Assembly: GCA_044356725.1 (NCBI GenBank)
Contig: JBIKVS010000003.1
Location: forward strand, 4,735 to 68,734
Reading direction: 5' to 3'
Source: Minisyncoccia bacterium
GTDB lineage: Bacteria; Patescibacteriota; Minisyncoccia; SW-4-49-11
DNA: 64,000 bases
Below are positions 2,833 to 50,525 of the stretch, in pieces. Each line of letters begins with the position of its first letter. Position 1 is the first letter of the stretch. The notes below the pieces were generated by a model that saw nothing but the letters and a program-made list of their open reading frames with translations, was not told where the DNA came from and made no database searches. Position numbers and translations under genes: made by a program.

Positions 2833-4264
2833 ATCTTATATTATCTATAGCTTGAGCTAAAGTTAGTAGTTTTTGTTCTTGAAAATGATTACTCATTAAT
2901 TGGAATCCTATTGGAAGTCCTGCATTAGATAAAGTAGGCACTGAAATACCTGGTATTCCTGCTAAGTTAGTAGCTACTGTGAAGATATCTTCAAGATACA
3001 TAGAAACTGGGTCATTGATTTTCTCTCCAATATTAAAGGCCGTATGTGGACTAGTTGGAGTAATAATAGCATCTACTTCTTTGAAGACATTGACAAAATC
3101 TTGTCTAATCATATTCTGAACTTGTTTAGCCTTACCATAATATGACGAGTAATATCCACTAGATAAAACATAAGTTCCCAACATAATTCTTCTTAAAGGC
3201 TCATTCCCAAATCCTTTAGCCCTACTAGCTCGATATACTTCTTGTAAATCTTGAGAATTTTGTAATTCAGATAATCCATATCTAATCCCATCAAAACGGG
3301 CTAAGTTAGTACTAACTTCAGCTGGCATAATAATATAATAGGTAGGAACTGCATATTCTGTATGAGGTAAACTCACTTCTACAAATTCTACTCCTAAAGT
3401 CTTATAAGTTTGTATAACTTCATCAATCGCTTTTCTGACATTCTCATCAATACCATCTATAAAATATTCTTTTGGAATACCAACTCTCATACCCTTAACA
3501 TTAGATTCCCTAATTTTATCAATATCCAAAAGTTGACTTGTCTCTAACTTAGCAGAGGTAGCATCCATATCATCCTTACCTTCTATTGCTTGTAGGATAT
3601 AAGCTGTATCAATGACTCTATGAGCAAAATGTCCAATTTGGTCTAAAGAAGAGGCCATTGCAATTAAACCAGATCTAGAAACTCTTCCATAAGTAGGTTT
3701 TAGACCGACTACTCCTGTAAGTGAAGCTGGCTGCCTAATTGAACCCCCTGTATCAGATCCAATTGAAATTACAGCCATATCCCCAGACACACTGGCAGCA
3801 GAACCTCCTGAGGAGCCTCCTGGAACTCTATTTGTATCAGCTGGATTACGAGTAGCTCCAAAGGCAGAGTTCTCAGTAGATGCCCCCATAGCAAATTCAT
3901 CTAAATTAGTTTTACCTATAAAGATTACACCTGCTTCTTTTAATTTAGTAATAACAGTAGCATCGTAAGTAGCTGTATAATCCTCTAACATTCTAGAGGA
4001 AGCGGTTGCTTTATATCCTTCAATTAGAATTGCATCTTTGACTGAAATTGGAATGCCTTCTAATAAACCTAATTTTTCTCCACGAGCTAATTTGGAATCA
4101 ATAGTTTCAGCCTGTTTTAAGGATTCTTCTCCAAAAACTTCAGTATAAGAATTGATTTCTTTATCTTTAGATTGAATAGTAGCCAGTATGTCTTCTACTA
4201 CTTTTGTGACGGTAGTATTGGATTCTATATAAGACTTATGGAGTTGTTCTATAGATGGTAGCAT
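2810..4264 (-). CDS. gatA: Glutamyl-tRNA(Gln) amidotransferase subunit A
   Basis: Amidase signature GGSSGGSAA...GSDTGGSIRQPA; 484 aa; lies directly downstream of gatC. Confidence 0.9.
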   Translation of the reverse strand: MLPSIEQLHKSYIESNTTVTKVVEDILATIQSKDKEINSYTEVFGEESLKQAETIDSKLARGEKLGLLEGIPISVKDAILIEGYKATASSRMLEDYTATYDATVITKLKEAGVIFIGKTNLDEFAMGASTENSAFGATRNPADTNRVPGGSSGGSAASVSGDMAVISIGSDTGGSIRQPASLTGVVGLKPTYGRVSRSGLIAMASSLDQIGHFAHRVIDTAYILQAIEGKDDMDATSAKLETSQLLDIDKIRESNVKGMRVGIPKEYFIDGIDENVRKAIDEVIQTYKTLGVEFVEVSLPHTEYAVPTYYIIMPAEVSTNLARFDGIRYGLSELQNSQDLQEVYRASRAKGFGNEPLRRIMLGTYVLSSGYYSSYYGKAKQVQNMIRQDFVNVFKEVDAIITPTSPHTAFNIGEKINDPVSMYLEDIFTVATNLAGIPGISVPTLSNAGLPIGFQLMSNHFQEQKLLTLAQAIDNIRYDKFDNQ

Positions 4265-4268
4265 ATTG

Positions 4269-4559
4269 TTATTTTTTCAAAACTGATTTAACTACTAAAT
4301 ACCCTTCTTCTACTAATGGCATTTCTTGGATAATATTTTCTTTAATATTAGAGCTAAATCTTGGATTATTATCTAAAGCAATATCTTCTCTTAGAGATTG
4401 AGTATGATAAGTGGGAATAGTTTTAGCTTCTAAATCTAGAGAAGTTAAAGTTGTGACATAGTCTAAAATATTACCAAAATCTTGAGTTAACATATTATGT
4501 CTTTCCGAAGAAAGGTTAATATGAGCTAATTTAGCAATAGTACTAACATCGTAATCCAT
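4269..4559 (-). CDS. gatC: Glutamyl-tRNA(Gln) amidotransferase subunit C
   Basis: 96 aa with a GatC-like profile (LRED...EEGYLVV) and a position 5' of gatA. Confidence 0.7.
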   Translation of the reverse strand: MDYDVSTIAKLAHINLSSERHNMLTQDFGNILDYVTTLTSLDLEAKTIPTYHTQSLREDIALDNNPRFSSNIKENIIQEMPLVEEGYLVVKSVLKK

Positions 4560-10504: not shown

Positions 10505-10870
10505 GTAAGAAAATTGTGGATTGGGAGTTGTAAATTATAAATTGTGAATGGTGAGTTATTAATTGGGAGTTGGGCATCTGTCTCCCTTCGGAGGGAGTAC
10601 CCGTAGGGGGAGGGTGGATAATGCTTAAAATACTAAAATAAACTATTGTTTGTATTAATATTAAAATCTATCCACCACCGGCACTTCGTGCCACCTCCTC
10701 CAAAGGGGGACAAAATAGGTACAGGCGACTGGAAGGTCGCCCCTACGAATACAAAACACAATGGAGGGATAAACGTTTACCTCCCGTAGGGATGTCTCCG
10801 CTACCAATATAATGTCGGTGGGGGCGCCAACTCTACGAAATTCATAATTTATCATTCATAATTAAAATTA
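10505..10870. repeat. GC-rich hairpin-dense modular element (family copy 1) with degenerate direct repeats at its 5' end
   Basis: The rpsB-ftsW spacer is unusually long (about 450 bp). It holds direct repeats aattgtgNatNggNgagtt x3 (10512-10580), module A gtctcccttcggagggagtacccgtagggggagggtggata (10580-10620), a long-range complement tatccaccacc (10669-10679), hairpins ggcac-ttc-gtgcc and ggcgac-tggaa-ggtcgcc, and module C ggggcgccaactctacgaaatt + ttcataatttatcattcataatt (10820-10865). Confidence 0.6.
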
Positions 10871-18522: not shown

Positions 18523-18620
18523 TTTATTAATATAATATATTGTATTATATTATATTCTAACATATATTCAGAATTTATCTAAGTGTTTGTATCGGATAAT
18601 TATAAATTATATAATTATCT

Positions 18621-18850
18621 GTCCTCCCTTGGGGGAGGTGTCACCGCAGGTGACGGAGGAGGACTGAGCTAAATTCCCCTCTTGAGGGGTGTCAGGCAAA
18701 AGCCTGACGGGGTGGAAAAATAAATTATGAATGATTAATTATAAATTATGAACCGTAGGGGCGCTGACTCTACGAAATTAATGATTCCTAAGCCTGGTAA
18801 AGCATCCTAAATTTCGCGCGGGTGAGTCCAGGAATTTAATCCCCTCAGCG
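18621..18850. repeat. GC-rich hairpin-dense modular element (family copy 2)
   Basis: Module B gtcctcccttgggggaggtgtcaccgcaggtgacggaggaggac (18621-18663) with outer stem gtcctcc/ggaggac and inner hairpin gtcacc-gca-ggtgac. Further hairpins cccctc-ttga-gagggg and gtcaggc-aaaa-gcctgac. Module C aattatgaatgat.../ggggcgctgactctacgaaatt (18725-18778). Confidence 0.6.
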
Positions 18851-20848
18851 AAGAACGCAACGAAAAGTAAGATCACCAGCTGTGAAACTTGGGGTGTTTA
18901 AGGTTGCAAGAGCAAATATTCCTGAATTAGAAGCTGCATTTGCATTACCACCACGTAAAAAGCCAAAGGCAGTGGTACCTGTGACTGTACCTGCCTGGTA
19001 TTGCCCCATATTCTGACTACTATTCCAACTAGTATTACTTGGTCTAGTTAAATCATAGCTTAAAGTGCCGAAATTAGTTATTGCTGTCCATTGCTGCCAA
19101 AAGGTACCAGAACTGTTATTGGGTTTATCTTGTCCTAATATAGTATCACTTGTCCATTCCCAGGAATTTCCACTTAAGTCCCATATTACTTCTCCATTAC
19201 TAAGGGTATGAGTTCTTCTCTGTCCACTTGGACTAGTATTACCTGTTCCAGAGTATCCATCATTATCATCTGTACTTGCTGACAATAAAAGAGCAGGAGA
19301 GTTATCGGTATGTCCGGACCACAAGCCTCCACTGCCTACTGTTCCTCCTGTCCAGTTTACTCCTTGCGCTTCTATGTTACGAGCTATGGTCATCCATTCT
19401 CTATTATTAATTAAACTTCCTCCTGCTAAGTTACACGCTGTTATAGCATTAGTCTGATTTAGGGAGCCTAGTGGTGGCCCTGCTGCTTGTGTGGTTGCTG
19501 CTACTGTTGATGATCCGGTCTTTGCTTCATATTTCATTACACAAAAGTCTCTAGTACCATATAAACTACTTCCAGGTACTCGGATATAGCCTGTTGGACA
19601 TTGTAGATACGACCAACCTGAAGCAGTACAAACTTGCAATCCCCCATTATTATATCTTAAAGTTCCTACATTAGAGCTAGTACAATTAGTAGTATCATTT
19701 CCAACTCTAATCCCACCATTTACATCTAATCTAGCTTGTGGGGTTGTGGTCCCGATACCTATATTCCCATTACCTAATATTCTCATCCTCTCATTAGCTC
19801 CATTTGCTCCAGTGAAGAATCTTATATCTTGAGCGGTAGCATTGGTAGTAGCTAAGACTAATGGCTGCGCACTTGTTGTACCTAACCTACTACCACTTGT
19901 CCCGTTCCAAGCATCTATAGTTGCATTCCCTGTTAAACTCCAGCCTGAACCTACGCTACTAAGACTTACCTGACTAAACTGTCCACTACTATTAGCTAAT
20001 AAAACTCTATCGAAACCACTTGGAGTTGTAGTATTAGCCACTCCTCCTAAGAGTGATGAGGTGACGGCTGTATTAGAAATTGTAAATCTATTAACACCAG
20101 ATGTACTAAATGTATATTGCTGTCCAACACTCCATAAAGTATTAAAACTTAATCCAAAATAAGTTTGAATAAATGAATTAGCAGAATTATCAGTAAATAA
20201 AGATAGTATATTAGTATTATCTGTATTTCTAATATTAAATGCACCTGCATTATTAGATGTATTTCTGATTGAAAGAACGGGATTATTACCCAAAAAGACT
20301 CCTTCTCCTCCTGAGTTTAGAGAGAAAGAATTGGTACTAGTACCACCATTTGCTACTAATCTCATAGAATTTATAGCTGACATTGCTGAGCCTATTCTCT
20401 TACGAGGGCTGAATATCTCTTCATAAGATCCATTCCCATCCGCATCTAATTGTAATTCTACCCATAAAGAATCATCATTGATAGAGCTAAGAGTTGTATT
20501 TTGACTTCCTAATAAAATTTCAAACCTACCATCAACAATAGATAATAGTGGCGATACTATTCCTGAGTAAGTTGTACTTCCATCTCTTATCTCTTCATAT
20601 ATAGATGTACCCCCAGAGACTACATTGTACAAACTAAACTTAACTCTATATCCTCCATCTGCTAACACTGTCCCATCATTTTTCACAATGGTCCCCGAAT
20701 ACGGTATCTGAGCATTAATACCAGTCCCTGCTAAGACTTTATTATAATTAGATATGATTAAAAATATTATGAATAAGAAAGCAATAACCCATCTTAGATA
20801 TGACTTATATTGTATATTAGCAAGTTTGTAAGATTTAAACACATTCAT
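18845..20848 (-). CDS. Secreted/signal-anchored protein with C-terminal FGE-sulfatase-like (C-type-lectin-fold) domain
   Basis: N-terminal signal anchor; C-terminal roughly 250 aa carry CPTGYIRVPGSSLY..DFCVMKYEAK, GNSWEWTSD, FLRGG and a terminal FRCVLR, resembling the FGE-sulfatase/SUMF1 fold. Paralogous to the C-terminus of the 36614-37978 ORF. Confidence 0.55.
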   Translation of the reverse strand: MNVFKSYKLANIQYKSYLRWVIAFLFIIFLIISNYNKVLAGTGINAQIPYSGTIVKNDGTVLADGGYRVKFSLYNVVSGGTSIYEEIRDGSTTYSGIVSPLLSIVDGRFEILLGSQNTTLSSINDDSLWVELQLDADGNGSYEEIFSPRKRIGSAMSAINSMRLVANGGTSTNSFSLNSGGEGVFLGNNPVLSIRNTSNNAGAFNIRNTDNTNILSLFTDNSANSFIQTYFGLSFNTLWSVGQQYTFSTSGVNRFTISNTAVTSSLLGGVANTTTPSGFDRVLLANSSGQFSQVSLSSVGSGWSLTGNATIDAWNGTSGSRLGTTSAQPLVLATTNATAQDIRFFTGANGANERMRILGNGNIGIGTTTPQARLDVNGGIRVGNDTTNCTSSNVGTLRYNNGGLQVCTASGWSYLQCPTGYIRVPGSSLYGTRDFCVMKYEAKTGSSTVAATTQAAGPPLGSLNQTNAITACNLAGGSLINNREWMTIARNIEAQGVNWTGGTVGSGGLWSGHTDNSPALLLSASTDDNDGYSGTGNTSPSGQRRTHTLSNGEVIWDLSGNSWEWTSDTILGQDKPNNSSGTFWQQWTAITNFGTLSYDLTRPSNTSWNSSQNMGQYQAGTVTGTTAFGFLRGGNANAASNSGIFALATLNTPSFTAGDLTFRCVLR

Positions 20849-23750: not shown

Positions 23751-23774
23751 ATATATTAACTTTTAACTAAAATG

Positions 23775-23847
23775 TGCCCCGAGTAAGACTTGCACTTACG
23801 ACACCAGGTTCTTCAGACCTGTGCTCTACTACCTGAGCTATCGAGGC
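23775..23847 (-). tRNA. tRNA-Phe (anticodon GAA)
   Basis: Cloverleaf by eye: acceptor GCCUCGA/UCGGGGC, D arm GCUC-AGGUAGUA-GAGC, anticodon arm CAGGU-CUGAAGA-ACCUG, T arm GUAAG-UGCAAGU-CUUAC, discriminator A. CCA is not encoded. The T-loop has G at position 55, which is atypical. Confidence 0.6.
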
Positions 23848-23853
23848 TATTTA

Positions 23854-24447
23854 TTAATTATCTAATGAAACTGACGATTTGTCAATAACAATTTGTGTGT
23901 TTTTGTTCTCTAATATGTCTAATACAAATTTATCAAACATATTTTGTCTATATTCAAACTCTTTTAAAGTCAAGACTGTATAGATTATTTCTTGAGCTAA
24001 TTCTGTTTCAATATCTTGAATAAGAGTTTCAAATTTTTTCTCATTTACATCATCAGCTACCAGAAACATATCTACTCTATCTTTATCTCTTTGTAAAAAT
24101 GCCCCCATAACTATACATAAATGTATAGTTCCAATTTTGTCAAGTTTTTGGGCCAATGTCTCAAAAAATGATTGACTTAAGCGAAATATAACTGATTCCA
24201 AAGCTAATACTTCCTCAATTTGATTTAAAATATAACTGGTTTCTTTTTTAGATTTAAATTCTTGAATTATATTATACTTGATGGCTTGTCTTAATTCTAC
24301 TTTAAGTGTATTTACTGGTATATGAGTTCTTGTATGTAATTCCTCTAAAGTTAATTTTAGAGTAGCATCTTTCAAAAAAACCTTTAGAATTTTAACTTTT
24401 TCTGTTCCTAATAAATATACTAATGGACTTTTCAGATTAAGAGACAT
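23854..24447 (-). CDS. Hypothetical protein (possible winged-helix plus minimal nucleotidyltransferase-like core)
   Basis: 197-aa ORF; weak G....D.D-like segment IVMGAFLQRDKDRVDMFLVADDV; no firm assignment. Confidence 0.35.
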   Translation of the reverse strand: MSLNLKSPLVYLLGTEKVKILKVFLKDATLKLTLEELHTRTHIPVNTLKVELRQAIKYNIIQEFKSKKETSYILNQIEEVLALESVIFRLSQSFFETLAQKLDKIGTIHLCIVMGAFLQRDKDRVDMFLVADDVNEKKFETLIQDIETELAQEIIYTVLTLKEFEYRQNMFDKFVLDILENKNTQIVIDKSSVSLDN

Positions 24448-24590
24448 AGACGGAAGAAAGGTTATACTTATTTACTATATTATATTGTACCTAAAATATA
24501 GTAAATAATCAATATATTGTATGAGATGATGAAATCGTAGACATTGAGTCAAGGAATGAAAGTAATCCATAGAGTATCAGACAATTAACT

Positions 24591-24846
24591 GTCCTCCCTT
24601 CTACCTACGGCAGACAGGTGGGAGAGGTGGCCCCGTAAATGGGTCGGGAAAACTGGAGTTTTCCTGTGGAGGAAGGCAACGAGGTCAAAGACCGAGTGTT
24701 GGAAACCGTGGCTTTCCAAGGAACAAATCCCATTTGCGAAGACGGAGGAGGACTTCAGGCGGACGTAAGCTCCCACCTATGGTCTATACTTCATAATTCA
24801 ATCTCTATCCACCCTCCCCCTTCCGGTACTCCCTCCTAAGGGAGAC
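24591..24846. repeat. GC-rich hairpin-dense modular element (family copy 3, expanded)
   Basis: Module B 5' half gtcctccctt (24591) and 3' half gacggaggaggact (24741-24757) are separated by a GC-rich insert of about 140 nt. Module A is in inverse orientation: atccaccctcccccttccggtactccctcctaagggagac (24808-24846). The AT motif ttcataattca lies adjacent. The ORFs predicted here on both strands are judged spurious. Confidence 0.6.
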
Positions 24847-24901
24847 AAAATACATCTCAATATTAAAGTATTGTCTACGATGTTTCTAATCTTTTTAAAT
24901 G

Positions 24902-25396
24902 TTACAAAATTTCTTGAATTTTTTTATATACTTGTTCTAATATTAGCTTGTCCTCCAGAGATATTTTCTTTAGAACAAATGCCTGTGCTTTTTGCCCTAT
25001 AAATCTCTCTGCTCTAATCCCAACTCTCACTCTAGTTACAGCTGGAGAAATATGCTGAAATATCGAGTCTACACCATGATGGCCTCCACTACCTCGATTA
25101 GTTTGAATTTTATATTCACCTAAAATAATATCTGAGTCATCATGAATAATTATAATCTCACTATCTTGAATATTATAATATTGCTTCACTGCTAAAACAG
25201 CTTGTCCAGAGTTATTCATATAGGTATGTGGTTTGAGATAGATATGATCTCCTTGTTTATAAATTGACCCTAAAAATTGTTTTTTATAGCCAAAATCTGC
25301 TCTATTAGTAATGATATCTAAGAATTCAAATCCTATATTATGATAGGTATCTCTGTAATTATCTCCAATATTACCAAGTCCTACTATTAATTTCAT
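24902..25396 (-). CDS. pth: Peptidyl-tRNA hydrolase
   Basis: N-terminal MKLIVGLGNIGDNYRDTYHNIGF and other Pth family motifs; 164 aa. Confidence 0.85.
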   Translation of the reverse strand: MKLIVGLGNIGDNYRDTYHNIGFEFLDIITNRADFGYKKQFLGSIYKQGDHIYLKPHTYMNNSGQAVLAVKQYYNIQDSEIIIIHDDSDIILGEYKIQTNRGSGGHHGVDSIFQHISPAVTRVRVGIRAERFIGQKAQAFVLKKISLEDKLILEQVYKKIQEIL

Positions 25397-34650: not shown

Positions 34651-36552
34651 TTAATCCAGAGTACCGTTGGAGTTATATTTAGCTATAAAGGAATCTGTTC
34701 CTCCTATACTAGTTAGCTCTTGAATAATGCCACCTTGTCCAAAATTAGATAAACCTTGGAAATAACCTACTACTAAAACATTACCATCTATATCCACATC
34801 AACGCCTCTACCAGAGTCTGCACCTGATCCACCAGCTCTCCTAGCCCAGGCTAATGTTCCATTGGCATTATATTTTGCTATAAAGGCATCTTGTGCTCCT
34901 GCACTAACTAATGATGTCTGATTAGATTCACCTTGACCAAAAGTTGCCGTACCCTCAAAGTATCCAGTTATTATGGAACTTCCATCTGTATTTATGGCAA
35001 TATCAATAGCTAAATCTCCTCCATTTCCTCCAGCTTTCTTAGCCCAAGCTAATGTTCCGTCTGAATTATATTTAGCTACATATATGTCTGCTTGTACTCC
35101 TGTACTGACTAATGTTGTTTCATTTGACTCACCCTGTCCAAAGACTGCTGTCCCCCAGAAAAATCCAGTTACTATACTACTCCCATCACTATGCATACCT
35201 ATATCTCTAGCCCAGTTTATATCTGCTCCTATTGACAAGACTTTTTTTGCCCATATAATACTTCCATCTGAATTGTATTTAGCTATATAGCTATTATAAG
35301 TTCCTGAGGCAGTTAAAATTGTCTGATTAGGGTCACCCTCACCGAAAATAACAGAATTAGTGCTAGCAAACTGTCCTGCAACAACAAATGTTCCATCTAT
35401 ATTATTACTAATTCCATATCCCCATTCCCAAGAATTACCACCTATTCTTTTAGACCAGGCTAATGTACCATTAGAATTATATTTAGCTATAAAGGTATCT
35501 GTAGCACCTCCACTAACAAGAGTAGTAGCATTGGCTTCTCCCTGTCCAAAGACTGCTGTCCCCTCAAAGTATCCAGTTACCAAAGCACTGCCATCAGAAT
35601 TAGCAGCTAATCCGAAGCCATATTCTCTTTCACCAGTACCACCTGCTCTCTTAGCCCAAACTAAATTACCATCCGTAGCATATTTTGCAACAAATATATC
35701 TCTACTTCCTGCACTGACTAGAGTTGTGGCATTAGGTTCTCCTTGTCCAAAGACTGCCGTACCTGTAAATGAACCTGTTACAATACTTGTCCCATCTGCA
35801 TATCCTATAATATAGTTACCCCCATAATCTTCACTAGTACCACCTGCTCTTTTGGCCCATGCCAAAGTTCCACTGGGATTATATTTAGCTATAAATATAT
35901 CTCTACTCCCTGCACTGACTAAAGTTGTAGCATTAGGTTCTCCTTGTCCAAGGATAGTAGTACCTTCAAATGAACCTGTAACTAAAACACTACCATCACT
36001 TAACTTAGAGACCCCTCCACTTTTATCCAAACCACCAGATCCCCCAGCTTGGACTAGAAAAGTTTGAGTTGGAGTTATAGTATTGATAACCAAATCTTGC
36101 TCTAATTCTGCTTTATTAGCTCTGAGACTAATCTGATTATTCGAGTCTTTAGCAATTTCATAACCTGTTTCTCCAACTATTGTATCGGTATCTTTGGGAA
36201 TTTCACTTAAGTATGTAGGGACCAACACTCTTAAATCTATCTTACCATCACAGTATCCTGTACTCGGTAGTGTATCTTCTATAGTAAGATTGCCTGTATC
36301 ACATATCTCTATATATGTATTAGTAGGTATGTTTAAATCTACAAATCCCCTATTAACTGCATTATATTGCTGTAATGCATTATAGATATCATTAATTGAG
36401 ACTTGTCTCTCAAGATTTCTAGATTGTGAGATTTGTCTACTAGGATTTATAGCTACTAGAACAATACTAGATAATATACCTATTACAACTATGGTCAAAA
36501 GTATCTCTAATAATGTAAATCCTTTATTACTTATCTTATTATATTTATTCAT
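34651..36552 (-). CDS. Prepilin-type N-terminal domain fused to SBBP-like beta-propeller repeats (large pilin-like adhesin candidate)
   Basis: Leader MNKYNKISNKG|FTLLEILLTIVVIGILSSIV; the C-terminus has about ten repeats of ...GTAVFGQGE.N.TTLVS.G..D.FIAKYN..G.L.WAK.AGG..., matching the SBBP beta-propeller repeat pattern. Confidence 0.65.
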   Translation of the reverse strand: MNKYNKISNKGFTLLEILLTIVVIGILSSIVLVAINPSRQISQSRNLERQVSINDIYNALQQYNAVNRGFVDLNIPTNTYIEICDTGNLTIEDTLPSTGYCDGKIDLRVLVPTYLSEIPKDTDTIVGETGYEIAKDSNNQISLRANKAELEQDLVINTITPTQTFLVQAGGSGGLDKSGGVSKLSDGSVLVTGSFEGTTILGQGEPNATTLVSAGSRDIFIAKYNPSGTLAWAKRAGGTSEDYGGNYIIGYADGTSIVTGSFTGTAVFGQGEPNATTLVSAGSRDIFVAKYATDGNLVWAKRAGGTGEREYGFGLAANSDGSALVTGYFEGTAVFGQGEANATTLVSGGATDTFIAKYNSNGTLAWSKRIGGNSWEWGYGISNNIDGTFVVAGQFASTNSVIFGEGDPNQTILTASGTYNSYIAKYNSDGSIIWAKKVLSIGADINWARDIGMHSDGSSIVTGFFWGTAVFGQGESNETTLVSTGVQADIYVAKYNSDGTLAWAKKAGGNGGDLAIDIAINTDGSSIITGYFEGTATFGQGESNQTSLVSAGAQDAFIAKYNANGTLAWARRAGGSGADSGRGVDVDIDGNVLVVGYFQGLSNFGQGGIIQELTSIGGTDSFIAKYNSNGTLD

Positions 36553-36613: not shown

Positions 36614-37894
36614 CTATCTAATTACACATCTAAAGCCATGTGTAGGTAAAGAGCATGTAGTATTACAAGGGCCAATTGAGAAAACTCCAGCTCCTTCTTG
36701 AGTCGAATCCCAACCTCCTGACCATGAACCACCTCTCATCCAATTAGAGATCTGAGTTGAGCTACTAGGAGAATGACTTATTAATTGTCCTATATTATTA
36801 GAGCTGTTCCAAGCTATATTGCTAGGTCGATAATAATCATAGTATAATATTCCATTACTGATAATATTATTAAATTCTACTCCAGCCCAACTAATTTGAT
36901 TGTTTGAATAAGGCATATCTTTTTGTTGAATAGTATCTGTAGTCCACTCCCATAGATTACCACTAATATCCCAAATAGTTTCCCCATTACTTAATATATG
37001 TGTTCTTTTTTGCTGCCATCCATTATTAATACTATTCCCTGTATCTTTATATCCCAAATTATCATCTGTGCTAGCTTCTAGAGCTGTATTCGGATTATTA
37101 TCACTATGTCCTCTCCAAATCCCTCCATTACCAATTTCGTTTACTGGAGTTGGGATTGGATTATACCAGTTATTAGATACCGATTCTATATTTCTAGATA
37201 TAGTCATACCTTCTACATTAGTCATTAAACTAGCTCCTGCATTAACACAATAACTTGCAGCCGTTGCTTGATCTATATTAGCTATTGGATACCCAGTAGC
37301 TACACTGGCTATAGTTCTACCATTAGCTGCTGTAGTGGGGGTGGTATTATTTGCTATAGTATTGAAACCAGTATTTGGAGTTGTTAAACCTACAGTTGGA
37401 CTATTGATAGCTACTGCTTTAGCTTCGTATTTCATCACACAAAAGTCTTTGGTTTGATATAGGCTGTTTCCGGGTACTTTTATATAACCTGTTGGACAGC
37501 TGAAGTTTCCTGCTGTATCTGTTGTATTGACATAGACTCTACCATCATTCCCTCTTGCTACCGTATATGTGGTACTACTTGGTATTGCGGATACATATTC
37601 TGGTATTAAACTACTTAGGTTTATACAGTCTGGTGTATTTACTGTATTACTACATACTTTCCTTTGTACTCCATCTAGTCCTGCTGGGTAATTACCTGTA
37701 TCTATCAATCTCTGTTGTAATGCTTTCTCTATTGTATTCTTATCGCTATTTATTGCTGCTTGTCTTGCTTGGTTTATTTGTCTATTTGGATTTATGGCTA
37801 CCAGTACTATTGCCGCTAATATTCCTATTGCTGCTATTACTAATAATATCTCTAGGAGGGTGAAGCCTTTGTTGGCTTTTATATTTCTATTCAT
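36614..37894 (-). CDS. Prepilin-type N-terminal domain fused to an FGE-sulfatase-like (C-type-lectin-fold) domain
   Basis: The ORF track extends to 37978 (TTG start). The likely true start is the ATG at 37892-37894, giving the leader MNRNIKANKG|FTLLEILLVIAAIGILAAIV. C-terminal CPTGYIKVPGNSLYQTKDFCVMKYEAK, GNLWEWTTD, MRGGSW and a terminal HGFRCVIR; paralogous to the C-terminus of 18845-20848. Confidence 0.6.
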   Translation of the reverse strand: MNRNIKANKGFTLLEILLVIAAIGILAAIVLVAINPNRQINQARQAAINSDKNTIEKALQQRLIDTGNYPAGLDGVQRKVCSNTVNTPDCINLSSLIPEYVSAIPSSTTYTVARGNDGRVYVNTTDTAGNFSCPTGYIKVPGNSLYQTKDFCVMKYEAKAVAINSPTVGLTTPNTGFNTIANNTTPTTAANGRTIASVATGYPIANIDQATAASYCVNAGASLMTNVEGMTISRNIESVSNNWYNPIPTPVNEIGNGGIWRGHSDNNPNTALEASTDDNLGYKDTGNSINNGWQQKRTHILSNGETIWDISGNLWEWTTDTIQQKDMPYSNNQISWAGVEFNNIISNGILYYDYYRPSNIAWNSSNNIGQLISHSPSSSTQISNWMRGGSWSGGWDSTQEGAGVFSIGPCNTTCSLPTHGFRCVIR

Positions 37895-38019
37895 ATGTAT
37901 GAGTTTATTATTTATAATTTTATTACAGTCTTTTCTATATCTATTTAACATTATACCTCCCCCCCAGATTTTTGTCAAATTTGGAGTGTGCTGATGTATG
38001 TATAGTTAATATAATAATT

Positions 38020-40874: not shown

Positions 40875-43800
40875 CTATTTTAATCTTAACAAATAAGTTC
40901 CACTCTGGTTATTATAAACCTGAAACCTCCCTCCAACTACTATCTTTCCATCTGATTGGATAGCGATAGTATTGACAGTCTCATTAAATCCTGTACCTAT
41001 CTCAAAACTATTATCTCTACTTCCATTACTATTGAGTCTTATTATTCTATTAGCTGATGCTCCTCCTTGATCTATAATTTCTGTATAATCATATTCTTCA
41101 TTATACTCTAACTCTCCCTGATATAACTCAAACCCTCCTCCTACTACTATCTTTCCATCTGATTGGATAGCGATAGTATTGACAGTCTCATTAAATCCTG
41201 TACCTATCTCAAAACTATCATCTCTACTTCCATCATTATTTAAACGAATTATTCCATTAGCTGAGGATCCTCCTTGATCTATAATTTCTGTATAATCATA
41301 TTCTTCATTATACTCTAACTCTCCCTGATATAGGTTAAAATATCCTCCAACTACTATCTTACCATCTGATTGGATAGCGATAGTATTGACAGTACCATCA
41401 AATCCTGTGCCTATCTCAAAACTATTATCTCTACTTCCATTACTATTGAGTCGGATTATGCTATTAGCTGATGCTCCTTTATAATTGCTAAAGTCTCCTC
41501 CTACTATTATCTTTCCATCACTTTGGATAGCGATAGTATTGACAGTCTCATTAAATCCTGTACCTATCTCAAAACTATCATCTCTACTTCCATCACTATT
41601 TAAACGAATTATTCCATTAGCTGAGGATCCTCCTTGATCTATCATTTCTGTATAATCATATTCTTCATTATACTCTAACTCTCCCTGATATAGGTTAAAA
41701 TATCCTCCAACTACTATCTTACCATCTGATTGGATAGCGATAGTATTGACAGTACCATCAAATCCTGTGCCTATCTCAAAACTATTATCTCTACTTCCAT
41801 TACTATTGAGTCGGATTATGCTATTAGCTGATGCTCCTTTATAATTGCTAAAGTCTCCTCCTACTACTATCTTTCCATCTGATTGGATAGCGATAGTATT
41901 GACAGTACCATCAAATCCTGTGCCTATCTCAAAACTATTATCTCTACTTCCATCACTATTTAAACGAATTATTCCATTAGCTGATTCTCCTTTATAATTG
42001 CTAAAACCTCCTCCTACTATTATCTTTCCATCACTTTGAGTTTTAACTATATCGACATCTGAGTCAAAAGAAATTTTATTGGTGTATTTAATTCTAAGTG
42101 ACAATCCACTATCAAAGTCAGTAGATCTACTACCGTCCAAATTAAATTTTAGAATACTTCCGATAGTAACGTCAATTGCTCCTCCATCAGTATTAAAGTT
42201 AGAAATCCATTCCTCATTTTCAAAATCTATCGTCTGCATATCAATTAATTCTCCATCTGCATTATATACATTATTAACTGTTGTAAACAAAGCTCCTCCT
42301 AGAAAAATAGTGTTATTAACTAATAACATTCTATCCGCGATATTAGGTGTTAATAAACTATTCATATCTAAACTAAAACTTGTATCTCTACTTCCATCAC
42401 TATTTAGTTTTAAAATATTTCCTCCAAAATCTTCAATTTCCCCAGAAAAATTTCTAAATAAGATAAATATAGTACCATCGCTTTGTTCATAAATATCTTG
42501 TATATAAAAGTATGTGTTTATACTTGGTAAAGATATATCTGAATTAAATGATAAATCTTTTTCACCATTGCTTGTTAACCTAATTAATCTATTTACTGAA
42601 TTGTTTTGATATGTTCTAAAATCTCCTCCTACCAATATCTTGCCATCAGTTTGTAACAATATACTGTTGACTACACCTCCACCAAACCAATCACCAAACC
42701 CTGACCCCATATCAAAGCTGCTATCTCTACTACCATCACTATTTAATCGAATTATTTTATTTGCTCCCAAGCCATTATAACTAGTAAAATTTCCTCCTAT
42801 CAATATCTTGCCATCTGACTGAACAACCAATTTATACACAGACCTATCTATACCTGAAAAACCCGTGCCTATATTAAAGCTTGTATCTCTACTTCCATCA
42901 CTATTTAATCGGATTATTCTATTTGCTCCTACACCATTATAACTAGTAAAATTTCCTCCTACTATTATCTTGCCATCTTCCTGTATGGCTAAAGTATTGA
43001 CAGAATCATCCCCGGCCGTTGTTCCATCCAGACTCCCCCTAAATCCTGTCCCTATATTAAAGCTTGTATCTCTACTTCCATCACTATTAAGTCTAACTAT
43101 TCCATTAGTTGATTCTCCTAGATACTCATTAAAATCTCCTCCTACCAATATCTTTCCATCTGACTGTTCCTTTATATCAAATACACAGCAACTTATGTCA
43201 CCTGAATTAAAACTTTCATCTATATCTCCATTTTGATTAATTCTAAATATATTATTGATATAATCACTATTAATTGTATTTACTAGTATATTACCATCAC
43301 TTTGTAATTCGAAAACAGTAGATTGTATGAGTTCAGATTCTAAAAAATTGTCAATATCAATAATGTACCTATTGGAATCAGAAATTAATTCAAACCCAAA
43401 ATTTCCTGTGTAAAAATCTTTATCTATTATTCCTGTGGCTGTGTTTAAAGGAGGATTTATACCATCATCTACATCATCTGTATCTGGAGGGATAACTGAT
43501 GGATTTGGAGTAGTTGGGATATTAGGTGTAATTGGATTTATAGGTAAATTAGGTACACTAGGAATACTTGGGACATTCGGTATACTTGGTTTATTAGTTA
43601 TACTTGGTAATTCTATTGGCTTATTATTTGTAATAGGTGGTTTATAAACTTCTATTGGAGAATATCTCAAAGGCTGACTTCTTATACCCCTATATTCTCC
43701 CCTTATATTATTAACTATTGTTGCTATACGTTGTTCTCGTTTTTCCTCATTCTCTCTTGTTACTACTGTGCTATTTCTATCATCTACATCTTGATCTCTG

Positions 43801-43958
43801 TTATTCTCTACTTTACTATTTTCTATCTTATTAACTGATTCTATATTTAATTCATCAATATCTGTATTTATATTATATATAATATATACTCCTAATACTA
43901 ATCCTATACTGATTCCTATTGTTAATAGGATATTTTTTAAATTTACTTTTCTCTGCAT
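40875..43958 (-). CDS. Giant surface protein with delta-60-type beta-propeller repeats and a Pro-rich stalk
   Basis: N-terminal TM; Pro-rich linker (PSIPNVPSIPSVPNLPINPITPNIPTTPNPSVIPP); then more than 10 repeats of IIRLNSDGSRD.SF.IGTGF.GTVNTIAIQSDGKI.VGG.F, matching the delta-60 repeat pattern. Confidence 0.6.
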   Translation of the reverse strand: MQRKVNLKNILLTIGISIGLVLGVYIIYNINTDIDELNIESVNKIENSKVENNRDQDVDDRNSTVVTRENEEKREQRIATIVNNIRGEYRGIRSQPLRYSPIEVYKPPITNNKPIELPSITNKPSIPNVPSIPSVPNLPINPITPNIPTTPNPSVIPPDTDDVDDGINPPLNTATGIIDKDFYTGNFGFELISDSNRYIIDIDNFLESELIQSTVFELQSDGNILVNTINSDYINNIFRINQNGDIDESFNSGDISCCVFDIKEQSDGKILVGGDFNEYLGESTNGIVRLNSDGSRDTSFNIGTGFRGSLDGTTAGDDSVNTLAIQEDGKIIVGGNFTSYNGVGANRIIRLNSDGSRDTSFNIGTGFSGIDRSVYKLVVQSDGKILIGGNFTSYNGLGANKIIRLNSDGSRDSSFDMGSGFGDWFGGGVVNSILLQTDGKILVGGDFRTYQNNSVNRLIRLTSNGEKDLSFNSDISLPSINTYFYIQDIYEQSDGTIFILFRNFSGEIEDFGGNILKLNSDGSRDTSFSLDMNSLLTPNIADRMLLVNNTIFLGGALFTTVNNVYNADGELIDMQTIDFENEEWISNFNTDGGAIDVTIGSILKFNLDGSRSTDFDSGLSLRIKYTNKISFDSDVDIVKTQSDGKIIVGGGFSNYKGESANGIIRLNSDGSRDNSFEIGTGFDGTVNTIAIQSDGKIVVGGDFSNYKGASANSIIRLNSNGSRDNSFEIGTGFDGTVNTIAIQSDGKIVVGGYFNLYQGELEYNEEYDYTEMIDQGGSSANGIIRLNSDGSRDDSFEIGTGFNETVNTIAIQSDGKIIVGGDFSNYKGASANSIIRLNSNGSRDNSFEIGTGFDGTVNTIAIQSDGKIVVGGYFNLYQGELEYNEEYDYTEIIDQGGSSANGIIRLNNDGSRDDSFEIGTGFNETVNTIAIQSDGKIVVGGGFELYQGELEYNEEYDYTEIIDQGGASANRIIRLNSNGSRDNSFEIGTGFNETVNTIAIQSDGKIVVGGRFQVYNNQSGTYLLRLK
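40930..42060. repeat. Near-identical intragenic tandem DNA repeats (360-bp super-unit made of 207-bp plus 153-bp sub-units)
   Basis: The 22-mer ggatagcgatagtattgacagt recurs at 40958, 41165, 41372, 41525, 41732 and 41885 (spacings 207/207/153/207/153). Long stretches are identical, e.g. about 41281-41510 against 41641-41870. Confidence 0.8.
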
Positions 43959-48970: not shown

Positions 48971-49233
48971 GTTTAGTTAATATTTTTTAAAGTAAGTTTA
49001 TGTTCTCTGAAATATAATACGGTAAATCTCAGTATTTTTTAAATCCAAAAGGACTGAGCTCTGCCTTCTAAAAATCACTACCTACTTTTTACCTCTTAAC
49101 CCATGTTTTCATAGATAAGCCTCGGCTTTTGTCATTGATGATCTGAGCTTATTTTCTACGGCCTTGAGATGTTTATTATATTTATTGTTTTCTCTCATCT
49201 ATTTTGGTGTTTAGATAAAGTTGGAAGATCTTA

Positions 49234-49331
49234 GTCCTCCTCCGTCACCTACGGTGACACCTCCCCCAAGGGAGGACAGTTCTTATCTTGTCTCCATTTG
49301 GAGGGAGTACCCGCAGGGGGAGGGAGGACAG
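49234..49331. repeat. GC-rich hairpin-dense modular element (family copy 4)
   Basis: Module B in reverse orientation, gtcctcctccgtcacctacggtgacacctcccccaagggaggacagtt (49234-49281), is the reverse complement of the 18621-18663 copy with one mismatch. Module A gtctccatttggagggagtacccgcagggggagggaggaca (49290-49330). It sits between convergent genes. Confidence 0.65.
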
Positions 49332-49334
49332 AGC

Positions 49335-50525
49335 CTACAGCCCAAATCTACCTTTGGTAGCATTGAAGTTTTGTTGAATTTCTTCTGGGGTAAGTGCTCT
49401 ACTATAAAATTTTGCAGAATATATTCTACCATTAAAAAATCCATAACTTGGGTAAGCGCCTATCAAATCTGTAGTGATTTTTACATTTGTTCTTGTACTA
49501 GCTAGACCATTTTTTATAAATGTTCCATTTATATAAAGAGAAGGAACTTTATTTGTATAATTTACTACTATATGAATTGGGGCATTTATAGTAACTGAGT
49601 GCGATAATAATGGAGGCATATAAGCAGCTGAATGCTCATAAACACTTATACCATTAGTTCCAACTGATATTCCAGAACCGGCATCAGGAGATGCAACAAA
49701 TTGAGGGCCAATTACATATTTTTGTCCTGATGTACCCCCAAAACCAGAATTAGTTTGTGATTCTATTTCGTGAGTTGTTTGTGGTAGGCACCAAATATCG
49801 TATGAAAAATTATTAAAAACATTAGAAGTACTTGAGGATACTCTATCATCGCCCCCATCAAAGACTAAAGCACCTCCATTAGCAGAGTTGTAGGTAGGAG
49901 TAGAAGGAGCTGGAGCAAGTGTCCCATTATTATTGTTCCCACTTAAATCAAACCAGGTATTTTGGGCTGTATTTAAACCTGGATAACTATTTATATTACC
50001 TGCATCTAGATGTAATACTAGTCCATTAGTGACTATAGATGGAGTGATTGTATTAGATTGTAGTTCAGTAGTAGCTTCTTTATTAATTACTCCTGACTTA
50101 TTAATTATAATAGACTTACTTACTCCCCCACCAGTTAAATCTATTTTAATAGAATCATTACTCAAGTCTAGTTCACCATTGATAAGCTTGAATGGTATGT
50201 CTAATGTCTGTTCTGAACTGACTGTGATGCCAGAATTGATTGTGATAATTTCAGGATATTGAGTAGATGTACAGGTTACTGCTGTTATAGTGTATGTTTT
50301 AGCAGTATTATCTATACATACTCTCCATTGAGAATCTTTATACTGATTTTTAGATAATTGTTGGGCTCTTAGCAATGCATTGTAGAGAGATTCATGGGCT
50401 GCACTTAAATCATTGCGGATTACTATACTAGATACTAAAGGTGTCGTAATAGCTATAAGAATAGCTATCAAAACTATTACTAAAGTAATTTCTATTAATG
50501 TAAAACCTTTATATTTACCCTTCAT
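49335..50525 (-). CDS. Pseudopilin/type IV pilin-like protein with C-terminal LamG-like domain
   Basis: Leader MKGKYKG|FTLIEITLVIVLIAILIAI; C-terminal GFFNGRIYSAKFYSRALTPEEIQQNF, a LamG-type end; last gene of the pilus block. Confidence 0.65.
   Translation of the reverse strand: MKGKYKGFTLIEITLVIVLIAILIAITTPLVSSIVIRNDLSAAHESLYNALLRAQQLSKNQYKDSQWRVCIDNTAKTYTITAVTCTSTQYPEIITINSGITVSSEQTLDIPFKLINGELDLSNDSIKIDLTGGGVSKSIIINKSGVINKEATTELQSNTITPSIVTNGLVLHLDAGNINSYPGLNTAQNTWFDLSGNNNNGTLAPAPSTPTYNSANGGALVFDGGDDRVSSSTSNVFNNFSYDIWCLPQTTHEIESQTNSGFGGTSGQKYVIGPQFVASPDAGSGISVGTNGISVYEHSAAYMPPLLSHSVTINAPIHIVVNYTNKVPSLYINGTFIKNGLASTRTNVKITTDLIGAYPSYGFFNGRIYSAKFYSRALTPEEIQQNFNATKGRFGL

Follow-up and report, generated by a model that had tools for sequence, protein, structure and literature searches.

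REP, REPIN and BIME sequences are short, GC-rich, imperfect palindromes that lie between genes in many copies, often as inverted doublets, and are specific to a lineage. REP and REPIN sequences have an associated RAYT (Y1 HUH) transposase in the genome. Integrative elements of tRNA and other conserved gene ends, and the derivatives of these that lack an integrase (CIMEs), insert at tRNA 3′ ends or at the ends of conserved protein genes, and the target gene stays intact because its end is duplicated as a direct repeat. In the omega-RNAs of TnpB and IscB (IS200/IS605) and in the tRNA-targeting CRISPR RNAs (crRNAs) of CRISPR-associated transposons (CAST), a structured scaffold is joined to a variable segment which matches adjacent host sequence. 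Yeast mitochondrial GC clusters and the PstI palindromes of Neurospora are GC-rich intergenic hairpin repeats, dispersed in AT-rich genomes and suspected to be mobile. We analyzed a locus whose modules, or whose wider family, resemble these systems in part. It lies in a stretch of 64,000 nt from a Minisyncoccia bacterium (Patescibacteriota; contig JBIKVS010000003.1, positions 4,735 to 68,734), called the window below, in which a first-pass annotation had described a family of GC-rich repeats, numbered copies 1 to 4. Copy 3 (24590-24847) harbors a conserved structured core (24634-24722, + strand), and it belongs to a widespread family of the Candidate Phyla Radiation (CPR) that is absent from Rfam 15. 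CPR bacteria (Patescibacteria) represent a large share of bacterial diversity, their genomes are minimal and their RNA biology is almost unexplored; a near-invariant RNA structure of ~70 nt is kept in these genomes in several copies.

The core is ~70-90 nt long and consists of GAAAGGGGUC, hairpin 1, GUGGAGGAAGG, an optional hairpin and hairpin 2. Its consensus reads GAAAGGGGUC, GGGAAAAC-loop-GUUUUCCC, GUGGAGGAAGG, an optional hairpin of 0-45 nt and UGGGAAAACCGUGGGUUUCCCAGR. The family was scanned for with the exact pattern TCGGGAAAACN{9,15}GTGGAGGAAGG, so that the counts are lower bounds and sequence conservation is overstated. This pattern matched at least 120 stretches of metagenome contigs and was found at least 109 times in genome contigs, nearly all of them CPR metagenome-assembled genomes (MAGs), with up to four matches per assembly. 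Hosts among the genomes are Parcubacteria, Paceibacteria, Kaiser-, Nomura-, Vogel-, Taylor-, Ryan- and Yonathbacteria, together with many assemblies labelled Saccharibacteria, and the core is near-invariant across CPR lineages of 31-59% GC. Some loci contain two or three copies, where the second units may be truncated remnants. The few matches outside the CPR (L137, L043 and L127) lie in coding sequence and look like chance occurrences. IMG/VR viral contigs gave no match to the core pattern and none to a pattern for module B, one of the repeat modules of the window, and a viral origin was rejected on this ground.

A covariance model of 70 positions (R1), built from contigs unrelated to the window, found a single match there, at 24634-24722 (+), with 64.1 bits (E ~6e-19) over model positions 1-70 of 70. 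Both hairpins are intact in the window core, with one G.U pair in hairpin 1, and the strand concerned is antisense to both neighboring genes. Copies 1, 2 and 4 contain no core by R1. Rfam 15 gave no family at its gathering score in the window or in 18 loci of the family, and a search with E up to 10, using the window copy and one generic copy, gave no meaningful match beyond weak ones to Whalefall-1. Ribozyme, riboswitch, RNase P, signal recognition particle, 6S, tmRNA and intron families were set aside, as no Rfam match was obtained and ARAGORN found no tmRNA; the group I introns known at position 35/36 of Patescibacteria tRNAs are a different thing from the core element. By Rfam and ARAGORN, the known RNAs of the window are a tRNA-Phe and the weak Whalefall-1 matches only. 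Our literature searches found no description of the core element.

Base pairing in the core was analyzed in an alignment of 110 non-identical cores (A3). Both hairpins are 88-97% paired, and one pair (94-113) is occupied by GC in 71 sequences, CG in 18, UA in 14 and AU in 1. The covariation score was reached by none of 500 shuffles, and sliding the 3′ partners by 1-3 columns lowered pairing from 93% to 32-65%. Diverged copies, which were found through R1 and not through the pattern, keep both hairpins by double compensatory changes: in hairpin 1, GGGAAAAC/GUUUUCCC becomes GGGGAAA/UUUCCCC or GGAGAAC/GUUUUCU, and in hairpin 2, UGGGAAAACC/GGUUUCCCA becomes UAGAAACC/GGUUUCUA or UGAGAACC/GGUUCUCA. 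Core cells with G:U number 22 versus 6 with A:C, and hairpin 1 alone, where only the 3′ arm is free to vary, has 10 versus 1. Because both hairpins covary and G:U strongly exceeds A:C, the structure appears to be selected on the GAAAGGGG strand, and on this comparative evidence we regard it as established that the core is a structured RNA read from that defined strand. The two covarying hairpins are linked by the purine-rich joining strands GAAAGGGGUC and GUGGAGGAAGG, which are invariant; their possible Shine-Dalgarno/anti-Shine-Dalgarno complementarity amounts to a 5-nt GGAGG match seen by eye. In the subtype to which the window copy belongs, hairpin 2 carries loops of the GNRA type (GUGA, GAGA) and the optional hairpin has a tandem G.A next to its stem.

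Copy 3 stands out from its surroundings by composition, the island at 24556-24849 having 50-59% GC against ~31% for the window. It occupies a 454-nt gap between pth (24902-25396, −), whose product is a Pfam Pept_tRNA_hydro protein, and a gene (23854-24447, −) for a 197-aa protein without a Pfam family, which agrees with the earlier placement between pth and a hypothetical gene. Two kinds of GC-rich module contribute to it, A (TGTCTCCCTTCGGAGGGAGTACCCGTAGGGGGAGGGTGGATA) and B (CTGTCCTCCCTTGGGGGAGGTGTCACCGCAGGTGACGGAGGAGGACTGAG), with a common layout, in which the head and its hairpin 1 are followed by a small hairpin 2 and then by a tail rich in purines. From 24590 to 24847 we find a module-B head, ~140 nt, a module-B tail and then a short module A in inverted orientation. 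The first-pass annotation had reported module B as split by one GC-rich insertion of about this length. Both halves are where it placed them (GTCCTCCCTT, 24591-24600; GACGGAGGAGGACT, 24741-24754) and the spacing is right, but the interval is not a single insertion: it comprises four pieces, namely a 19-nt expansion of a loop (24601-24619), an arm (24620-24627), the core (24634-24722) and a third hairpin (24723-24737). The inversion of module A relative to copies 1 and 4 was also seen correctly (24806-24847 on the − strand versus 10579-10620 and 49289-49337 on the + strand).

Read in order on the + strand, the head TGTCCTCCCTT (24590-24600), which recurs in the intact module-B copies at 18620 (+) and 49278 (−), can pair with the arm at 24620-24627 or with the tail at 24744-24753. 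The 19-nt expansion CTACCTACGGCAGACAGGT (24601-24619) is itself a small hairpin and sits in the loop of module hairpin 1; similar or near-identical expansions occur at this loop position in four other loci (L093, L188, L227 and L121), and different ones in L066, L072 and L113. Then follows the 3′ arm of module hairpin 1, GGGAGAGG, plus TGGCCCCGT (24620-24636). The latter would form the 5′ side of a possible closing helix around the core (P1, CCCGU/ACGGG; CCGU/ACGG in the window), which is paired in only ~70% of subtype members, the column assignment being approximate. The core (24634-24722) rests on the R1 score, on covariation in the 110 relatives and on the compensatory changes in diverged copies. 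It is made of the joining strand J1 (UAAAUGGGUC in the window) before hairpin 1, hairpin 1 itself (24646-24665), the joining strand J2 (GUGGAGGAAGG, 24666-24676), the optional hairpin with its tandem G.A (24677-24699) and hairpin 2 (24700-24718). Hairpin 3, ACAAAT-CCC-ATTTGC (24723-24737), is specific to the subtype of the window; its triloop is variable and its stem nearly invariant, with 99% of cells paired among 27 members. The module-B tail GAAGACGGAGGAGGACT (24738-24754) contains GGAGGAC, complementary to GUCCUCC of the head, and across subtype members the tail type follows the head type. Beyond it lie a stretch CAGGCGGACGTAAGCTCCCACCTATGG (24758-24785), which by eye resembles CAGGCGACnnnnnnGTCGCCCCTACGA at 10722-10750 and may be a degenerate module D (see below), and the short module A without core (24806-24847, −), inverted relative to the long module so that their tails face each other.

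The earlier proposal of a structured RNA with a conserved closing stem and an expansion segment was thus partly borne out. Covariation and strand asymmetry support an RNA structure for the internal domain. This domain is no expansion segment of a module-B RNA, since it is an independent unit with a far wider spread and a stronger conservation than modules A and B: the core occurs in >200 CPR loci, mostly without these modules, and its arms there derive from tRNA or other gene ends. The closing stem GUCCUCC/GGAGGAC is possible but not the only pairing, as the head fits the adjacent GGGAG arm equally well. Likewise, both strings of the proposed ggtgggag/ctcccacc complementarity are present (GGTGGGAG, 24617-24624; CTCCCACC, ~24771-24778), but their pairing lacks comparative support, because the second segment falls outside the unit conserved in relatives. 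Thermodynamic folding of 24580-24860 gave z = -0.39 for the − strand and -0.57 for the + strand; these values are uninformative, since purine and pyrimidine runs fold as well when shuffled.

The subtype was defined from an alignment of 27 members (A4), ~25 of them distinct, which come from Paceibacteria/Parcubacteria-type MAGs and from metagenomes with a median GC of 35%. Its order is a head GTCYCCCTT, hairpin 1 with an expandable loop, GGGAG-TACCCGTAAT, a hairpin termed HPa, the core, hairpin 3 (GCAAATnnnATTTGC), GACG and a tail (GGGGAGGGTGGATA or CGGAGGAGGAC), and an inverted short module usually stands ~20 nt beyond the tail. HPa covaries (AGAC/GUCU versus AAGGC/GCCUU). The window copy has the hairpin 3 followed by GACG, the GC-rich module arms and the inverted short module downstream; it deviates in that HPa is missing, in the form ACAAAT...ATTTGC-GAAGACG, and in that hairpin 2 is closed by CCGUGGC and not by a GNRA loop. 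Long modules hold the core in place of the hairpin-2 loop, and sometimes of the 3′ arm of that hairpin too. Head, arm and tail types go together (A type versus B type), and the CCUCC/GGAGG pairings are too low in complexity for covariation to give a verdict between head:arm and head:tail. Short modules reach 15.1 per 100 kb in subtype loci versus 0.1 in other core-bearing loci, which shows that the GC-rich repeat family is lineage-specific whereas the core is CPR-wide.

Near-identical strains carry the same sequence in this gap, with the exception of L001, whose flanks are 99.5-100% identical to the window. In L001 the long internal domain lies inside a module A on the pth-sense strand and is followed by an inverted short B-like module, so the arrangement was replaced between near-identical strains. 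The insertions of L001 and of the window align over their whole length (75% column identity, with indels at hairpin-like sub-domains) and have in common GGGTCGGGAAAAC-nnnn-GTTTTnnn-GTGGAGGAAGG; as they align throughout, the insert itself constitutes a conserved unit. We also observed patches of 95-97.5% identity (L001:1-800 and 4001-4400) amid the 99.5-100% of the remainder, one of which adjoins the replaced element; judged by identity, they indicate frequent homologous recombination in the population.

Most of the family has another setting. In ~100 of 186 non-redundant loci the layout is a tRNA gene, a spacer, a segment X′, the core and a segment X2. Of 112 metagenome loci, 67 have a same-strand tRNA whose end lies 17-96 nt upstream of the core, 36 anticodons being represented, and over all non-redundant loci the upstream tRNA is on the same strand in 99 cases and on the opposite strand in 1. 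If the 3′ end of the tRNA is called X, X′ is the reverse complement of the T-loop, the 3′ strand of the T-stem and most of the acceptor 3′ strand, and X2 repeats the 3′ strands of T-stem and acceptor together with the discriminator and 1-2 nt more, and is joined to the core by a short linker (AGUUCUUAUCC, GUGAGAUAUCC or GUGAGAUAGCGAAGCGUCC). The generic family thus has target-end direct repeats, bounded by the T-loop and by the discriminator plus 1-2 nt. X′ corresponds to the final 13-25 nt of the target, and the duplicated length is variable (13-46 nt). Scores of X:X′ and of the likeness between X and X2 have a median of ~11 versus ~6 in cross-locus controls, and 73% of core-linked tRNAs versus 21% of other tRNAs have an X′ score of at least 10. 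Since X′ is an inverted and X2 a direct copy, X′ can pair either with the real gene end (median 16 bp, ~5% non-Watson-Crick) or with linker and X2 (median 11 bp, ~13%), and X′:X2 closes the core in a long helix. G:U exceeds A:C in both pairings, with 29 to 6 in X:X′ and 35 to 9 in X′:X2. Terminator-like hairpins were found in 24% of the spacers between X and X′ and after X2 in 19%, versus 9% in controls, which is not decisive.

The targets are not confined to tRNAs. They include 3′ ends of rpmG and, on either strand, 5′ ends of rnhA and a glycosyltransferase-like gene; in the rpmG case of L135 the ~46-nt duplicate appears, by eye, to differ at synonymous positions only. The element is often embedded in tRNA clusters. 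Copies linked to tRNA-Lys(CTT) recur in several species with arms that covary with the tRNA, and between species they have the look of orthologs. When 2,140 neighboring open reading frames (ORFs), within 3 kb around the core in 216 loci, were clustered all against all, no enzyme family was seen to recur near the core; the clusters were housekeeping families and spurious ORFs across the core only. We consider three features of the family as established: the association with conserved gene ends, the antisense-plus-sense arms and the absence of a linked enzyme gene in these neighborhoods. For the window copy, no tRNA is adjacent, the tRNA-Phe at 23774-23847 being ~740 nt away and on the other strand; the arms are module sequences, and no target-end direct repeat was identified around it. 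Separately, ~30 other CPR tRNA genes of these loci (among them L024, L036, L064, L097, L103, L138, L140, L162, L194, L204, L235 and L242) have the same X/X′/X2 frame around different structured inserts of 60-110 nt, the recurring ones beginning with AGACGGAGC, AGGAATGTCGGGG or AGACTTTTCG. The core would then be one cargo type of a broader class, and the shared frame suggests a superfamily of helix-clamped RNA cargos.

For each known family compared, at least one defining feature was looked for and not found here (an Rfam score at the gathering level, an integrase, an effector gene alongside, or terminal inverted repeats). Unlike REP-type sequences, the window modules are two hairpins plus a tail and not one palindrome, and one arm contains a large structured RNA; none of the 10 window proteins scanned against Pfam is a transposase, in a scan that included no search aimed at RAYT (Y1 HUH). 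Unlike the integrative elements, the CPR element is only ~100-170 nt long, has no integrase in or near it, and possesses an extra inverted X′ and a structured core; to our knowledge, an inverted target copy and an RNA-type structured core are not features of known integrative elements. The CPR element differs from the guide-bearing transposon RNAs in having no adjacent effector, a scaffold without Rfam match and two arms, one antisense and one sense; a guide function of these arms would be an analogy. The organelle GC clusters have unrelated hosts and sequences and no conserved structured core, so that they are a resemblance only. MITEs (miniature inverted-repeat transposable elements) have terminal inverted repeats and a target-site duplication that is short and constant in length; a MITE was rejected, as the conserved unit has no terminal inverted repeats and the target duplicate is variable (13-46 nt) and accompanied by an inverted copy. 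A TIGR-Tas array, with alternating repeats of 8-12 nt and spacers of 9 nt beside a Nop-domain gene (PMC12045711), does not fit a ~70-nt core occurring singly. We class the element with small repeats or integrative elements that carry a structured RNA. We know of no described bacterial element in which antisense and sense copies of a gene end clamp a structured core.

We give about an even chance to the explanation that the core family is a small element that is non-autonomous, duplicates its target and has a structured RNA at its center. Copy 3 would then be a composite, in which a pair of inverted, lineage-specific GC-rich hairpin modules, REP-like and Whalefall-1-like repeats of AT-rich Paceibacteria/Parcubacteria-type genomes, accommodates the CPR-wide RNA element nested where hairpin 2 of module B would sit. 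This comes near to the composite mobile element that the first-pass annotation had offered as one option. The element would be integrative or homing and moved in trans, and its transcript would be a helix-clamped structured RNA; we infer its mobility, its mode of integration and the role of the arms as target-recognition sequences. A target-duplicating element is favored by the direct target repeats next to an intact gene, the rpmG duplicate with apparently synonymous differences only, the multiple target classes on either strand, the several copies per genome, the decayed remnants and the strain difference of L001. If the element moves, it would rank with the smallest known elements that are target-specific, and the matching between arms and targets would bear on programmable RNA-based targeting.

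Several observations weigh against this explanation. No orthologous pair of empty and filled sites was found, a search with downstream flanks giving further tRNA genes, and the insertion boundaries are therefore not defined. Neither the neighbors of the 216 loci nor the Pfam scan of 10 window proteins revealed a linked transposase, integrase or reverse transcriptase. The L001 difference may be an imported allele and not a transposition, as the patch of 95.8% identity adjoining it points to a recombination tract. Copies 1 and 4 are invariant among the sampled strains, and scans for promoters and terminators at copy 3 gave nothing above chance. A target-duplicating element leaves unexplained how X′ comes to match each new target, and the core, near-invariant even between lineages with diverged tRNA arms, and the orthologous-looking tRNA-Lys(CTT) copies would fit a host-beneficial RNA as well or better. 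We also entertain, as unlikely, that core, X′ and X2 make up a new, programmable type of mobile element based on RNA. The core could be a scaffold RNA, and its arms, taken from the target, could direct a nuclease or recombinase encoded in trans to the ends of conserved genes, with no adjacent effector; or the locus could be a DNA copy of a very small circular replicon of dumbbell shape, X:X′ and X′:X2 being one and the same helix. In a related idea, the invariant core could be a new self-processing ribozyme.

A structured noncoding RNA that benefits the host and does not move is a serious, though less likely, alternative. X′/X2 would here form a minihelix resembling an acceptor/T-arm, so that RNase P, 3′ trimming and CCA addition would excise the RNA from transcripts of tRNA clusters and stabilize it, while the invariant core would bind a conserved CPR partner and the arms would have arisen from, or been homogenized with, the neighboring tRNA. 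Near-invariance across lineages of such different GC content is what it would predict, as are the tRNA-Lys(CTT) copies of several species with their co-varying arms, the strand shared by core and tRNA, the frequent position within tRNA clusters, and an X2 that reproduces the 3′ strands of T-stem and acceptor with the discriminator and pairs with X′ at a G:U excess (35 versus 9 A:C). It would make a new widespread class of noncoding RNA tied to tRNA genes. However, the same core occurs with arms that are not from tRNAs (rpmG, rnhA and glycosyltransferase-like ends on either strand, and GC-rich modules); of the two helices, X:X′ has the greater length (median 16 bp, versus 11 bp for X′:X2) and the cleaner pairing; and truncated remnants, the replaced arrangement in a near-identical strain and a window copy that lacks tRNA-like arms and is antisense to both neighbors are not accounted for. 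The window copy without tRNA, together with the protein-gene targets, some on the opposite strand, also counts against a cis-acting switch in the tRNA 3′ trailer, which we consider quite improbable. In such a switch, X′ would toggle between the 3′ half of the tRNA, blocking its folding or forming an RNase III-type duplex, and the decoy X2, and the core would sense a signal that controls tRNA maturation. Three segments that permit mutually exclusive pairings, both with a G:U excess, would suit it well, and so would the co-directional orientation at 17-96 nt from the tRNA end and the invariant joining strands, which resemble ligand- or protein-binding junctions. But the 36 anticodons have no obvious common need, and a terminator-like hairpin separates the tRNA from X′ in 24% of spacers. 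Finally, the palindromes GGGAAAAC/GTTTTCCC and GGGAAAACC/GGTTTCCC could bind a dimeric recombinase or another protein as DNA, the apparent covariation reflecting symmetric half-sites and not RNA folding. The half-site GGGAAAAC does occur four times in alternating orientation, and the direct target repeats are reminiscent of attL and attR. The excess of G:U over A:C noted above (22 to 6, and 10 to 1 in hairpin 1) is not expected of symmetric double-stranded sites, and the variable loop length (4-5 nt), the GNRA-type loops, the tandem G.A and the compensatory changes of the optional hairpin also speak for RNA, which makes a DNA-level site very improbable.

The two ORFs predicted at copy 3 (24585-24776, −, 63 aa; 24639-24839, +, 66 aa) do exist, and across the core ORFs were found in 24 loci on the − strand and 19 on the + strand, of 216, as might be expected if one of them encoded a small protein. 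They fall on both strands, and in a minority of loci. No frame across the core is consistently open in the 27 subtype members (the best in 14 of 27, the others in 2-9 of 27), length differences in core and element are not divisible by three, at the ATG of the + ORF the family consensus has GGAAAGGGG, and no gene is called in the gap in sister contigs covering copy 3. For these reasons we regard the ORFs as artefacts of the GC-rich island, as had been proposed at first, and leave next to no probability for a small protein. The 94-aa ORF at 49221-49505 (+), which starts in the copy-4 modules and overlaps the 3′ end of a pilin-like gene on the opposite strand, is probably an artefact of the same type. 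Such GC-rich islands give rise to false ORF predictions in CPR genomes of high AT content; model R1 can be used to annotate them.

All four module loci of the window are intergenic and three of the four are inverted doublets. Module A has copies at 10579-10620 (+), 49289-49337 (+) and 24806-24847 (−) that are 85-86% identical, and the intact copies of module B (18619-18668, +; 49230-49279, −) have 96% identity along 50 nt; the modules at 10662-10712 (−) and 18674-18720 (+) have diverged further. Copy 1 (10579-10712) consists of module A (10579-10620, +) and an A-like module (10662-10712, −) with their tails facing, and module D (10722-10741) lies beyond. Copy 2 (18619-18720, +) is module B (18619-18668) followed by a third module type (18674-18720). 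In copy 4 (49230-49337), module B (49230-49279, −) and module A (49289-49337, +) have their heads facing. At copies 1, 2 and 4, the comparison of strains yielded identical or uninformative variants.

The modules also recall Whalefall-1 (RF01762), a motif found so far in environmental sequences only and with no assigned function (Weinberg et al. 2010, PMC2864571). Matches to it were obtained at 24811-24848 (−, 21.4 bits) and 18619-18664 (+, 18.7 bits); both scores are below the gathering score of 37, so the modules are not members by the Rfam criterion. The cmscan alignments suggest the layout of two hairpins plus a purine tail, but hairpin 2 of module A is reduced there to 6 nt. Modules and motif appear to have in common a hairpin 1 of the CUCUCC-UUGG-GGAGAG type and, after a hairpin 2 that varies, a tail rich in purines (AGGGUGAGGAC versus GGAGGAGGAC); nothing in Whalefall-1 corresponds to the CPR core of copy 3.

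Module D (CAGGCGAC-n6-GTCGCCCCTACGA, then ATACAAAACACAATGGAGGG) was observed beside module doublets at 10722-10750 of the window and in L136, L055, L158 and L206, with a density of 7.2 per 100 kb in loci of the window subtype versus 0.1 elsewhere. A direct repeat, GGGGCGC(C/T)(A/G)ACTCTACGAAATT, marks the edges of copies 1 and 2 (10820-10845 and 18757-18780); it is flanked by AT-rich ATAATT/TTATGAA repeats and was also detected as inverted repeats.

Among the other genes of the window, 18845-20848 (−) and 36614-37978 (−) are paralogous, with 79% identity over an 80-nt stretch. A pilin methylation motif at the N-terminus and a weak match to an FGE-sulfatase domain were seen in the product of the latter, and that of the former ends in ...AGDLTFRCVLR*, resembling variable proteins of diversity-generating retroelements. 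Such a retroelement was rejected for 18845-20848, with no reverse transcriptase among the scanned genes and no template-like repeat in the window. Tandem coding repeats were observed in 40875-43958 (−; 1027 aa, units of 153 or 207 nt) and in 34651-36552 (−; 633 aa, units of ~201 nt), whose products are probably repeat-domain surface proteins.

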